64,000 nucleotides of DNA, taken from NCBI GenBank assembly GCA_951406725.2, contig OX597832.1, forward strand, positions 38,688,001 through 38,752,000. Direction: 5' to 3'. Below the pieces are notes generated by a model that worked only from the letters and a program-made list of their open reading frames with translations, was not told the DNA's origin and did not search any database. Below are positions 10,605 through 55,921 of the stretch, one piece after another; position 1 is the first letter of the stretch; every line of letters begins with the position of its first letter. A program made the translations under genes and the position numbers. This stretch comes from Octopus vulgaris (lineage: Eukaryota).

Positions 10605-10801
10605 TGTGACCTCGTGTGTACCGTTGGCGATTTTTTCCTCCTCCGTCTTCCCTTCTTTGGATTTTTCCTTTTCCTATGTTTCTGACGAAGAGCTCCGCTC
10701 GAAACGTTAAACCCTCCTTCTTTCCTGAGCGTCCAATAATACTATATTTGTTCCACGTCCTCGCGTTGTTGTGTTTTCTCTTTGTGTTTTCATGCTTGGA
10801 T

Positions 10802-27595: not shown

Positions 27596-28735
27596 TTATT
27601 GCTTATTTAGCTTGGGTTCGAATTTATCAATAAAATTCTTTTCTCTGATTTTCCTCTCGATTTCACTTGGGCTGTGTAATTTGTAGAATGGAAATATTAT
27701 ATATATTTTCCGACCACATGTTGCTAGGTGGTTACTCAAAGGTATCTGACGGACCTCTGGGTCTCTAATCTGTTGCCGGTGTACACGTGAGCGTTCTAAT
27801 AGTGCGTTTCCCGTCTGACCTACATATATTTCTTCACAATTTGGGCATTTGATGCAGTAAATTAAATTTCTGCTTTTGCAGTTCATATTCGCGTTTGTGA
27901 ATATTTTCCCGGTTTTTGTGTTTATATATTGACCGGTATGTATGAATTGGCATGTGCCACATCGGCTATCATTGCATTTAGATACCGTGAATGTTTGGTC
28001 TTTGTTGCTGAGGTCAAATTTTGCCTTTGTTAGTAATGTTTTCAAGTTTTTAGGCTGTCTTTTACTAAGCACCATAGCTCGATCCTTGATTATGTCTTTT
28101 AATTCATTACTTTGGGCAATGATTGGTAGGTTTGCTTTGGCAATGTTGAAGATATTCTGGTGACATGGGTTGTGTGTCACTATGAATGGTATGACTTGTT
28201 CTTGTTTTCCTCTTCCTTGGGTTGTCCTAAGTTGTTGTATAGGTATTTTTATAGCCCGCTGTATGCCATTTTCTATAAGTAGAGATGGGTATTTTTGTTT
28301 GAGCAAAAATTCTCTTAGTTCTATTAGGCGTTTGTTCCTGATATTTGCATCTTCTACAATAGTACAAATTCTTCTGGCTAGGCAGTATGGGATGTTACGT
28401 TTTGTATGTGGTGGATGGCACGACTTAAAATTTAGGTATTGATGTGTGTCTGTGTGTTTATAGTATATATCTGTGGTGATGGTGGTGTCTTTTTTAATTA
28501 CCATTATATCCAGGAATGGTAATTTGGTACTACTCATCTCCTTTGTAAATTTGAGAGATGGGTGTAGGTTGTTCAGGAGGATATTGAACTCTTCCAGAGT
28601 ATTTAGAGATTCTGTCCAGATTATGAAACAGTCGTCTAGGTATCTCTTCCATGCCTTTTCAATATACTTTCTAAATCCAGTGCCATAGTTTACCTCCACC
28701 TCTTGGTAGAGTTGTTCTTCTAAGTATCCCATTAC
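27596..28735 (-). CDS. PLE reverse transcriptase (C-terminal half) + Cys linker + GIY-YIG endonuclease, uninterrupted frame
   Basis: WKRYLDDCF, LPFLD, IYYKHTDTH, CNDSRCGTC linker, LIYCIKCPNCEEIYVGQT, and a terminal E..PKLN motif. Confidence 0.95.
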   Translation of the reverse strand, partial: VMGYLEEQLYQEVEVNYGTGFRKYIEKAWKRYLDDCFIIWTESLNTLEEFNILLNNLHPSLKFTKEMSSTKLPFLDIMVIKKDTTITTDIYYKHTDTHQYLNFKSCHPPHTKRNIPYCLARRICTIVEDANIRNKRLIELREFLLKQKYPSLLIENGIQRAIKIPIQQLRTTQGRGKQEQVIPFIVTHNPCHQNIFNIAKANLPIIAQSNELKDIIKDRAMVLSKRQPKNLKTLLTKAKFDLSNKDQTFTVSKCNDSRCGTCQFIHTGQYINTKTGKIFTNANMNCKSRNLIYCIKCPNCEEIYVGQTGNALLERSRVHRQQIRDPEVRQIPLSNHLATCGRKIYIIFPFYKLHSPSEIERKIREKNFIDKFEPKLNKQ

Positions 28736-28800
<65 letters not shown>

Positions 28801-28834
28801 TTGATCAAAATAAAAACATGATGCCAAGGATTCA

Positions 28835-32039: not shown

Positions 32040-32520
32040 ATATAGCATTCGTAACACATCATCTCGTTCGGCTTAACAGCCCTTCTTGTCTTGTTATTCT
32101 CCTTGTCCTGTCTTTTACAGTTTATATTTTGTACTGTCGTTACTGTCCTGTTTTTGTTACCATGTTTACCCCTCCGCAAAAAGACCTCAAATTTTATTTA
32201 ATTTGCTTTTCGCGGGAAGGAAAGTTTCTATCGAAGATGCGTATCGCCTTCACCTTCGAAACGCAGAGTGGATGAAACCATGGCGACTGAAGAAGGGGAA
32301 TTTTCCTTGTGTTATTTGTCCTGTACTCTATTTTTTCGTTCTTTAAGAAAAATGTCCAGTTCCTTGATTTTGTGTTTATGTTTCCGTTTCTCATTGTGTT
32401 CGACGTTTTTTTTTTTGGTGTCCTGTACCCATATATGCGTGTATATATACATGTAGAGGTAGGTACGCACATATATGTATGTATATATGCATATGTTTTA
32501 TTTATTAATTTATTATATGT
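32040..32520 (+). mobile_element. (TA)n-flanked non-coding element carrying a permuted hammerhead
   Basis: Shares ccct...gcaaa...tttaatt blocks and the gtcctgtac...gtaggtacg tail with 55640-56160; related to 51203-51708. Confidence 0.75.
32224..32298 (+). ncRNA. Non-circularly permuted hammerhead ribozyme (GUA site, 32243)
   Basis: III tgcgt/GAAAcgca; I tcgcc/ggcga-CTGAAGA; II gggg/cttc (wobbles); extra helix gtttctatc/gatgaaac. Confidence 0.7.
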
Positions 32521-35236: not shown

Positions 35237-35312
35237 ACCCTTCATCAGTTGTCGGCTGTCTATCTACTCCTTATTTCGAGCATTGAACGTCAATATGAGT
35301 CTTCGAAGACAG
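35237..35312 (-). ncRNA. Non-circularly permuted hammerhead (AUA site, 35294)
   Basis: Minus: ctgtct..ctcat-A-ttgacg..gctc-GAAA-taag..agacag-c-cgacaa-CTGATGA-a-gggt; one mismatch each in stems I and III. Confidence 0.65.
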
Positions 35313-35403
35313 TTGCTCCCATCAGTACCAAAATAAAATTTTGGTGTTCCCAAATTTGACCTTCTATAAATCTAAAATTTTATTTTGGTACTTATAGGAG
35401 CAA

Positions 35404-35479
35404 CTGTCTACGAAGCCTCACATTGTCGTTCGATGCTCGAAATGAAGAGTAGACAGACAGCCGACAACTGATGAAGAGT
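35404..35479 (+). ncRNA. Non-circularly permuted hammerhead with U16.1>C mutation (likely inactive)
   Basis: ctgtct..ctcac-A-ttgtcg..gctc-GAAA-tga..agacag-c-cgacaa-CTGATGA-a-gagt. Confidence 0.6.
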
Positions 35480-50501: not shown

Positions 50502-50579
50502 ACCCTTCATCAGTTGTCGGCTGTTCATCTACTCCACATTTCGAGCAATTCACAACAATATGAACCTTTGTAAAAACAG
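50502..50579 (-). ncRNA. Non-circularly permuted hammerhead (AUA site, 50559) in element ~50365-50625
   Basis: Minus: ctgttt..cat-A-ttgttg..gctc-GAAA-tg..gaacag-c-cgacaa-CTGATGA-a-gggt. Confidence 0.7.
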
Positions 50580-50666
50580 TTGCTCCCGCGAACCAAAATA
50601 AACTTTGGGATTTGCAGAGGATCAAAGTTGGTGGCAAAAACAGAAGAGTAGAGACATGCAACAAAC

Positions 50667-51202: not shown

Positions 51203-51699
51203 ATATATGCATATGTGGGCACAGCACGTCACTCTCTGTCCTTTACTCCGCTACCCTTTCTCACATGGCTCCCACGTGACCATCGTAATTTGTTTCTTTC
51301 TCTCCGTTGTAGCTGGAACAAGAAAGACGTGTTGTTGTTTGTCTCCTGTCCAAGCTTGATTTACGCGTTCATCACCACAACCTCACTTAGGCTTAGCAGC
51401 CCTTCTTGTTTGTTTTCACTGTCCTGTTTGTGATACCAATTTTGACCCTCCGCAAAATCCCAAATTTCATTTAATTTGCTCTGCGGGAGCAACTGTTTTA
51501 TCAAAAGTGTATATTGTTGTTAAATGCTCGAAATACGAGAGTAGAAAAACAGCCAACAACTGACGAAGGGTCGTTCTTTATGTTACTTGTTTTGTTTCCC
51601 ATTTGTGTCTTTCGTTGTTCGAAAGAATAGTTCATGTTCCATGTACTCGTGCTTCATATTGTTTGTTTTACTAGTTTCGTGACGTCCTGTGCCCACATA

Positions 51700-54084: not shown

Positions 54085-55070
54085 CGAATATGGCGGGGCA
54101 TCGTTTCCAATTCAAACTGCTCCAGCATTTGGAATGTCCTCGCTCTATGTAGCCGAGTATTATTCTAATGGAAGGACACCTTTCCTCTTGAAACCAAAGA
54201 TGCTTCTAGCGCTGACTTGAGCCGCTCAAACTGCTCGCAACAGATCTTTGTTACCGTTTGGTTTGGGTTTAAAAGTTCAAAGTAGACTAAACCTTTCATA
54301 TCCCACCAAACAGATAACAACACTTTAGGTGCGTGAAGACCTTCATTAGCCTGGAGTGCCGGTGTTTCTCATTTCCCTATCCACTGTCTGTGGCGTTTGG
54401 CATTTTCCAAGAAAATCCATTTCTCGTCACTAGTCACTGTTCGGTCCCAAAAAGATTCGTTCGTGAGACGTGGCAGTAAAGAAGATCATACATTCACTCT
54501 CTGCACGCGATTATACTCAGAAAGTTTGTGAGGAATCCATTGACCCAATTTGCTGACTCTTCCGATGACACGCAGGTGTCAGTGAATGCTCGAATGACCG
54601 AATTCAAGCTTCTCCACTTGTTCGTCAACAGTTACGATGGGATTTTGTTCCACAAGGTTTTTTATGACGTCCTCGTCGAGCTCTACAGATCTTCCAGGAC
54701 GGGGCTCGTCTTCTAGGCTGTAGTTTCCGGTTCGGAATCTCTGGAACCACTGCTGACATCGGCTTATGTTTATTATCCGATCCTCATCTACCGCATTAAT
54801 ATTCTTCGCACTTTCCGTTGCGTTGTTGCCTTTATTGACATCATAAAGCAAAATATGTCGAACATGTTCCTTTGTCACTTCCATTTATATCTTTGAAAAA
54901 TAACTGTTAAAATCGAAATGAACTCTTCAAAACTTTTACCTTGTCCTAAGAATTAGGACAAGGTAAAATTACTACCTGCTTTTATAGCAAGTTGATGCAG
55001 GTAGTTTATACCATCCTCCTCCGACTTTTAGTTCATGCAATTAAAAATATCGCATTATTTATGGGATGTT
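54085..55070 (-). mobile_element. mariner transposon (second subfamily), degraded
   Basis: MEVTKEHVRHILLY..WFQRFRTGNYSLEDEPRPGR HTH region; VTSDEKW; TIR-like end at ~55045-55068. Confidence 0.9.
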
Positions 55071-55116
55071 GTTATATATGCATAATTCTTGTTTGTTTCT
55101 TAGTATACATTCGCCC

Positions 55117-55186
55117 CCAAAATTGAGTGGTCTCAATGATAATGGCGCGAAATCATTATGATATTTTGGCTCATTGACTGACGAGG
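55117..55186 (+). ncRNA. Non-circularly permuted hammerhead, sequence-divergent subfamily (GUC site, 55132)
   Basis: Extra helix ccaaaat/attttgg; III agtggt/GAAAtcatt; I tcaatga/tcattga-CTGACGA; stem II only G10.1-C11.1. Confidence 0.65.
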
Positions 55187-55596
55187 AAAACTCAGCTGCG
55201 AATATTCCGTGTATTGTGTCTTTGTCTAAATTTCCCGTCCGTTAAGATTTCGTTTACTTTCCCGTTTGCTCTGCTTTCGTCTAACTTTTTCTCCTTGTGT
55301 TCTTTCTGTTCAACCCCCGATACTTCCATGTAGAGCAATGCACACTCTGTTTGTTTAGTTTATTATAAAAGATATTCCTTGAATATTTATTGTGAGACTC
55401 TTAACTCTCTCTACTATATATATTTGCCACACTGGACGAGTAATGCAATATAACAGATACAGGTTCTGTCGTTAACCAGCTGGAAAAGATGCATTATTCT
55501 GAATGGAAGAGCCTCGTAAAAGTGGCAACAATCGGTACTGTTTAGTACTGTTACTACGTGAATTTCTATCAGAGATTTTAAAACCAGCTACTTTAG

Positions 55597-55644
<48 letters not shown>

Positions 55645-55848
55645 TTCGTCGTCTAGGCTTATAGGCCCTCATTATTTGTTTTCCTGTCCTGTTTCTATTC
55701 CTTCTCGTACTGTATGTTTTGTAATTGTATTTTTATTTTGTATTTGTTTTTAATTGTATTGCTTTTACGTCCTGTTTTTGTCACATTTTTGTTCCTTGTT
55801 TTTACCCCTCTGCAAAGGAATTTTATTTAATTCTTTCGCAGGAAGGAT

Positions 55849-55921
55849 TAGTCGACGAGACGTGTTCTGTCCTCACCTTCGAAACACGCTGGAGTTGAAC
55901 TAGGGACAGCTGATGAAGGGG
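55849..55921 (+). ncRNA. Non-circularly permuted hammerhead (GUU site, 55866) in (TA)n-flanked element 55640-56160
   Basis: Extra helix tagtcgac/gttgaacta; III cgtgt/GAAAcacg; I ctgtcc/ggacag-CTGATGA; II gggg/cttc. Confidence 0.7.

Follow-up and report, generated by a model that had tools for sequence, protein, structure and literature searches.

A segment of the Octopus vulgaris genome raises the question of how a hammerhead-type core could be maintained when one of its stems seems to be almost absent. The segment lies at positions 55117–55186 of the window, by which we mean the whole stretch of 64,000 nt analysed (GenBank assembly GCA_951406725.2, contig OX597832.1, positions 38,688,001–38,752,000 of the forward strand). 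The initial annotation described a permuted order of hammerhead elements, shared with other copies in the window, in which a single G-C pair is all that remains of stem II, which may be nearly dispensable. We propose instead, with a probability of about 0.68, that the segment is a decayed hammerhead-type motif, likely derived from the 3′ end of a Naiad-type Penelope-like element, with a predicted four-strand core in which stem II is completed by a 5′ leader and not by the bases after CUGANGA, and that its active parent likely cut itself after GUC.

The elements of the motif all lie on the forward strand (+). The 5′ strand of an extra helix (55117–55123), equivalent by comparison with SGC-1 to the stem I-II interaction helix of type SGC hammerheads, is followed by the 5′ strand of stem III (55126–55131, ending in U16.1), C17 of the GUC site (55132), 3′ of which cleavage is predicted from the sequence and by analogy with hammerhead numbering, and the 5′ strand of stem I (55133–55139). 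After a 4-nt linker come the stem II 3′ strand GGCGC (55144–55148, last base C11.1), the GAAA box with the stem III 3′ strand (55149–55157, with A15.1 at 55152), the second strand of the extra helix (55163–55169), a one-base junction (55170) leading into the stem I 3′ strand (55171–55177), and the CUGACGA box (55178–55184), downstream of which there is no stem II beyond one possible G-C pair (55185). The core bases CUGANGA, GAAA and NUH are all present (55178–55184, 55149–55152 and 55130–55132), and they are intact in the family majority. Stem I (55133–55139/55171–55177) has 7 Watson-Crick pairs, the extra helix (55117–55123/55163–55169) has 7 pairs, and stem III (55126–55131/55152–55157) has 6, two of which are G-U here through two C-to-T changes and Watson-Crick in the family majority. 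The junction is a single C, as annotated, and C, G or U in other copies. The order of the blocks (cleavage site, GAAA, CUGANGA) is that of type SGC.

These helices, boxes and site had been read correctly from the sequence, as had the permuted order common to the other window copies and the hammerhead-type fold: a search for both boxes with at least 7 pairs in stem I and at least 6 in stem III gave 1 match in the window and 0 in 200 block-shuffled windows. The nested folding energy of the 70-mer is unremarkable (z 0.07), as would be expected for a knotted fold. The knotted order also means that an Rfam match is not expected; indeed, nothing in the window reached the gathering threshold, and six loci gave nothing at E ≤ 1, the only matches being microsatellite-like microRNAs below gathering.

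What the annotated interval misses is a strand that ends two bases before it begins. In the family to which the window copy belongs, a leader with the majority sequence GCGCC, just upstream of the extra helix, complements GGCGC before GAAA; it is the displaced 5′ strand of stem II (positions 10.1–10.5). In the window copy it reads UCGCC (55111–55115, +), its first G having been removed by a ~37-nt deletion just upstream, so the strand is easily overlooked. Across 31 aligned family copies the leader helix is paired in 90.3% of cells, whereas the strand after CUGACGA pairs with the stem II 3′ strand in 22.4%; the description of stem II as one pair holds for this latter strand only. The four-helix structure as a whole is paired in 92.4% of cells against 35–44% for slid partners, and the 7-bp extra helix is paired in 94.5%; the linker between stems I and II is 4 nt. 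Within the family only 8 cells show changes on both sides of a pair, partly as a result of CpG decay, which makes comparison across lineages the real test.

Six other copies in the window belong to other lineages. Those at 32216–32293 (+), in the four-strand layout, and at 55842–55916 (+), from a young lineage whose best 40 copies are ~98% alike, have the leader GAAGG with CCUUC; those at 35242–35318 (−), the inverted partner of the decayed copy at 35398–35474 (+), at 50507–50585 (−) and at 51487–51566 (+) all have GAGCA with UGCUC, as does the decayed partner. In these six copies, as in the family of the window copy, stem II is predicted to be a 5–6 bp helix with its 5′ strand placed ahead of the extra helix; a stem II 5′ strand continuous with CUGANGA (0–2 inserted bases) is not what the pairing indicates, either in the family (22.4% of cells) or across lineages (0/21 with 5/5 pairs).

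Further lineages were gathered from arbitrary stretches of the genome (600 kb), family searches and two pattern searches, in which GAAA-before-CUGAUGA patterns numbered 5,383 against 335 and 6,964 against 937 in reversed controls. From these, 21 lineages were picked by eye, some rows being single decayed copies and row F1b being mixed with F1 copies; repeats unlike this fold were omitted (e.g., L306/L308/L343/L344, L317/L337/L338, L326/L339 and L309). A partner with 5/5 Watson-Crick pairs lies in the lineage's own leader window in 17 of the 21, in the windows of other lineages in 7/396 comparisons and after CUGANGA in 0/21, counts that are not independent because the lineages were chosen by eye and share ancestry. 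The compensatory changes in stem II run through the leader, with four lineages short of a 5/5 Watson-Crick leader. Among 15 distinct leader/partner types, 72 of 75 cells pair, compared with a mean of 43.1 and a maximum of 60 in 100,000 shuffles, and two close lineages differ in both strands at once (GAAGG/CCUUC versus GAACG/CGUUC). Stems I and III and the extra helix likewise change on both sides across lineages.

The same preference for the leader appears in samples chosen in other ways. A descriptor blind to the leader returned 102 unique copies, of which 86 have a leader score of at least 10 and 3 a cis stem, with a cross-cluster control of 21.4%. Among 60 pattern loci unselected by family, 12 pass on stems I and III, and of these 10 have the leader and 0 a cis stem; in the arbitrary 600 kb the leader is present in 2/2 passing copies. 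The leader duplex is better in energy than the cis alternative in 21/21 lineages. A15.1-U16.1 is present in 21/21 lineages, and so is G opposite C11.1 (the G10.1-C11.1 pair), the latter count being partly built in, since a C ahead of GAAA was demanded by many seeds and the offset of the leader was set to maximize pairing. In F2 and F3, a wobble-rich stem II of 3–5 bp is also possible with the bases after CUGANGA; this weaker cis stem is perhaps a vestige. A strict scan of the 600 kb for six block orders gave 4 intact SGC copies versus 2 in reversed and 0.2 in shuffled sequence, too few to rank the orders.

The claim that this subfamily is unrelated in sequence to the other copies holds for the window and fails for the genome. 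With the boxes masked, the family consensus has no similarity to the six other window copies (z −1.3 to −0.1), but it scores z 3.7–6.5 against 7 of the 19 lineages compared elsewhere in the genome, including F12 (z 4.1) and F4, F5, F6 and F9 (z 4.4–6.5). The subfamily of the window copy, a decayed repeat without an ORF, thus shows sequence kinship to F12, the lineage found at the 3′ end of the published octopus Naiad consensus.

The motif is part of a dispersed repeat in a 2.8-Gb genome. We found 41 family matches, from 40 scored of 361 candidates, and a 21-mer of the family has 64 matches with at most one mismatch versus 0 in controls. The window copy sits in a remnant of the host repeat (55040–55430, +), a 5′-truncated piece of an ORF-less unit of ~0.9 kb; the family copies in general are 5′-truncated pieces, with variable 5′ ends, of this non-coding unit. 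Their 3′ end is within 80 nt of a microsatellite at 22 of 30 loci, although the genome is microsatellite-rich and no background rate stands behind this figure, and 5/30 loci have an inverted piece and 5/30 a direct duplicate. Divergence from the consensus among 31 copies is 6.2% in the core, 8.9% in the helices and 7.5% at other positions; the core is kept in 12/31 copies, and the core with all 25 pairs in 1/31. Individual genomic copies thus decay about neutrally, and this nearly even decay means that selection acted on parent elements and not on individual copies. Compensatory changes have kept the helices across diverged lineages, which indicates that selection did act on the structure of the source elements; the suggestion of a fold under structural selection therefore stands for these elements and not for the genomic copies. 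The window copy itself, with the leader G lost and two wobbles, is probably weak or dead.

The closest known relative in layout is SGC, a type of hammerhead (HRIMA-1) with the block order site-GAAA-CUGANGA (Eckert et al., 2023, PMC10085705). In SGC-1, as drawn there and read by eye, CUGAUGA is followed by one extra base and then the stem II 5′ strand; one further base separates this from a strand of the helix tying stem I to stem II. The octopus form and SGC share the block order, a 5-bp stem II, a short stem I-to-stem II linker and a helix that ties the outer ends of stems I and II, with one strand directly upstream of the stem I 3′ strand and the second strand one base beyond the 5′ strand of stem II; the linkers are similar in SGC-1. 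They differ in where the stem II 5′ strand and the helix strand next to it are placed: after CUGAUGA in SGC, at the 5′ end in the octopus form. It therefore has the block order, tying helix and short linker of SGC and lacks an intact block C. PMC10085705 assumes that CUGAnGA and the adjacent paired bases are inseparable, and its search patterns demand this; its six-type scheme rests on three unbreakable blocks. According to the same paper, SGC was found only in metatranscriptomes, CSG is known from two metagenomic examples, and non-circular hammerhead permutations in general come from metatranscriptomes and metagenomes, besides one weak bacterial candidate. The octopus form resembles CSG in having the stem II 5′ strand ahead of the site block and the GAAA block, but CSG keeps CUGANGA and the stem I 3′ strand joined in front of stem II. 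The omitted repeat at L306, L308, L343 and L344 (central match) has GAAA before CUGAUGA and an imperfect fit to the cleavage site; it could represent an SGC form in which two inserted bases precede a cis stem II and the loop is longer.

Penelope-like elements are known to carry minimal type I hammerheads in their terminal repeats (Cervera and de la Pena, 2014, PMC4209133). With these the octopus form shares a Penelope-like setting and a conserved G10.1-C11.1 pair, whereas theirs have nested order and a tiny palindromic stem III and are dimeric; here stem III is 5–6 bp and the fold knotted. Indeed, the window motif does not follow the minimal type I order of CUGANGA, hairpin stem II, GAAA, short palindromic stem III and site. 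A probable minimal type I hammerhead does occur at window positions 10682–10715 (+), where CUGACGA, an extra A, a hairpin stem II and GAAA stand in classical order. Elsewhere in the genome, a large young Penelope-like family (24,174 candidates; L242–L266) has a minimal type I hammerhead 540–850 nt after the protein match at 22/25 loci, the first box being CUGUUGA (A6 changed to U) in 22/25.

Judged by its parts, the motif would act like a hammerhead and departs from strict SGC in block C, and on this basis it is a predicted new hammerhead permutation. In a literature search that covered mainly open-access papers, we found neither the four-strand form nor permuted hammerheads in Naiads described; the available parts of PMC13725137 and PMC6765202 hold nothing on the four-strand form, and that of a 2026 retrozyme preprint holds type I descriptors only. 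If true, the occurrence in nature of a hammerhead with a split block C would extend the six-type scheme by a new permutation class, make the A9-G10.1 link dispensable for the hammerhead core and offer ribozyme engineers a new opening point.

In the predicted fold, the strands would run in the order stem II 5′, extra helix, stem III/site/stem I, stem II 3′/GAAA/stem III, extra helix, stem I/CUGANGA. The displaced stem II segment would stand at the 5′ end with a short linker to stem III, and the backbone would leave the core between A9 and G10.1, so that A9 would stack on the leader's G10.1-C11.1 pair without a covalent link, while the extra helix would link stems I and II at their outer ends, as it does in type SGC. 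One RNA would adopt this form in cis. Cleavage after N17 is the established chemistry of the hammerhead family, and the same standard reaction would presumably operate here and process tandem read-through transcripts; the products would stay joined through ~18 bp in stems II and III and the extra helix, so that religation or circles would be favoured. The exit point coincides with a spot at which an unpaired base, between positions 9 and 10.1, is common in minimal Penelope hammerheads (PMC4209133), making a backbone exit there plausible.

The geometry was considered with bead models, the first of which was dropped because it failed to discriminate. The second, crude and ignoring handedness and threading, gave a strain of 82 for the octopus layout and 71 for an SGC-1-like layout versus 4,524 for an impossible control, which it thus separated. 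A coral layout gave 406 when fully paired and 149 once distal pairs open, the former value hinting at fraying or a two-molecule fold.

The strain of this coral layout as a monomer bears on an alternative in which the same four helices form between two RNAs or tandem units, possibly together with the protein of the element. In that case stem III and the extra helix would make one long hairpin, and its base tails (the leader and stem I-CUGANGA) would dock into the loop of another unit. This agrees with the description of minimal Penelope hammerheads as dimers of low activity (PMC4209133), with a Poseidon element whose hammerhead cut only when protein was added (PMC11167929), and with the direct duplicates and inverted pieces at family loci (5/30 each). 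However, the bead model embeds the octopus layouts about as readily as the published SGC-1, the palindromic stem III of the dimeric type is absent, and both new joins are known separately, stem III leading directly into the extra helix in SGC-1 and the extra helix lying one base from stem III in a nematode CSG form (by eye). We regard a two-RNA arrangement as unlikely, though it deserves serious consideration. We give a distinctly lower chance to a knotted fold that is conserved but no longer cuts and instead lets the reverse transcriptase of the element bind or prime. The sequence on both sides of the site is kept in copies, and the Poseidon element inserted in vitro without needing cleavage (PMC11167929), which speaks against a needed role for cleavage. 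Yet the catalytic bases, A15.1-U16.1 (21/21) and a non-G at the site are kept in all lineage rows, although these were among the selection criteria, and the same bases recur in distant Naiad consensuses (by eye).

Two further readings concern stem II itself. In one, the ribozyme would be an ordinary SGC form with its active stem II after CUGANGA, and the leader a regulatory anti-strand that sequesters the strand before GAAA. The cis stem of F2 and F3, 3–5 bp with one bulged base, could be taken this way, but 11 of the 21 rows, including the window family, have at most one cis pair, several lack G at the first or second base after CUGANGA, and the leader occupies, with respect to the extra helix, exactly the position taken by the 5′ strand of stem II in SGC-1 and CSG forms; we consider this reading very improbable. 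Slighter still is the chance that stem II has shrunk to one G-C pair, as initially annotated. G55185 can indeed pair with C55148, and could replace the lost leader G atop four leader pairs; nevertheless, a 5–6 bp stem II with compensatory changes exists through the leader, which argues against a dispensable stem II, and any of the four bases (A, U, G or C) can follow CUGANGA, depending on the lineage.

The preferred reading, a four-strand hammerhead with a leader-completed stem II, also carries a proposal for the host. Naiads, a group of Penelope-like elements, were reported to lack canonical hammerheads, with only "core" or "half-core" matches noted, and to have (TA)n targets, 5′ truncation, and tandem and inverted copies (Craig et al., 2021, PMC8557442). 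Lineage F12 corresponds, by eye, to the sense 3′ ends of the Naiad_Obim and Naiad_Ovul consensuses (PMC8557442), with leader GACACC opposite GGUGUC. The last 330–400 nt of 51 consensuses from this source were surveyed by eye, with no program. The four-strand form is clear in 8 of the 51 (three Acropora, Naiad-3_Chem, Naiad-2_Movir, Naiad_EuTe and two Octopus), from coral, hydrozoan, box jelly, one more invertebrate and octopus, and partial in two (Naiad_Bfor and Naiad_Esco). Six nematode ends (Naiad-1, -2 and -3_Nbra, Hcon, Hpol and Asuum) are clean type CSG by eye, with block C intact and the same extra helix, long and flanking block C; the other 35/51 have different motifs, unresolved matches, or nothing in the part read. 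The scrambled layout likely explains the apparent absence of ribozymes in Naiads and, if true, would directly answer the puzzle of Naiads without canonical hammerheads (PMC8557442).

The family of the window copy agrees with Naiads in microsatellite targets, 5′ truncation and tandem or inverted copies; Neptune elements do too, so these traits are not Naiad-specific. It differs from Naiads in having no attached ORF in the copies seen, and none was found for it among 135 upstream regions of seven families. A Naiad ORF (N-terminal GIY-YIG, C-terminal RT) was likewise not found upstream of 25 F12 loci, all 5′-truncated, or of family copies, with Neptune-like proteins and short motifs as the only queries; a Naiad motif regular expression gave nothing in 1.7 Mb. 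The Naiad origin of the family, which we consider likely, therefore rests on sequence kinship and layout.

A Neptune-type host was also considered, but the GIY-YIG loci (30 loci of 148 matches), 20 downstream stretches and one young family have no four-strand motif in their own 3′ regions. In 5 of 20 stretches (L377, L380, L386, L388 and L394; also L162, L202 and L215), A-rich GIY-YIG elements have F2/F3 repeats 1–2 kb downstream, with an orientation bias, all of them lying in the opposite sense and beyond (TA)n tracts; because the four-strand copies near GIY-YIG elements sit beyond such tracts, a Neptune-type host is not supported. A Penelope-like element at L218, L223 and other GIY-YIG matches has many copies and an intact 781-codon frame, with no hammerhead in the 3′ regions examined. 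The window also contains a 5′-truncated Penelope-like ORF (27599–28804, −) with an RT C-terminus and a GIY-YIG domain (Pfam E 5.7e-06), and no hammerhead was seen in its 3′ region.

Together, these comparisons incline us, somewhat less firmly, towards a wider picture. The octopus genome would hold thousands of copies in many lineages, and Naiads across several phyla would carry active, non-circularly permuted hammerheads, including the four-strand form without a covalent A9-G10.1 link. CSG, SGC and the four-strand form would be three openings of one closed strand circle, offering a duplication route between permutations for which retrotransposons would act as a reservoir: the four-strand form would arise if a CSG unit underwent a short tandem duplication and then lost its first CUGANGA and its second stem II strand. 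Lineage F11 (L287–L301) carries a second box, CUGAAGA, ~15 nt before its leader, which itself contains a variable run of G/C; this additional box may be left over from an ancestor of type CSG. Other Naiads have other 3′ motifs, and that of bivalve Naiads may resemble a permuted twister. This conserved motif is shared by several bivalve Naiads, and oyster and hemichordate Naiads share another (PMC8557442); Naiads may have swapped ribozyme classes.
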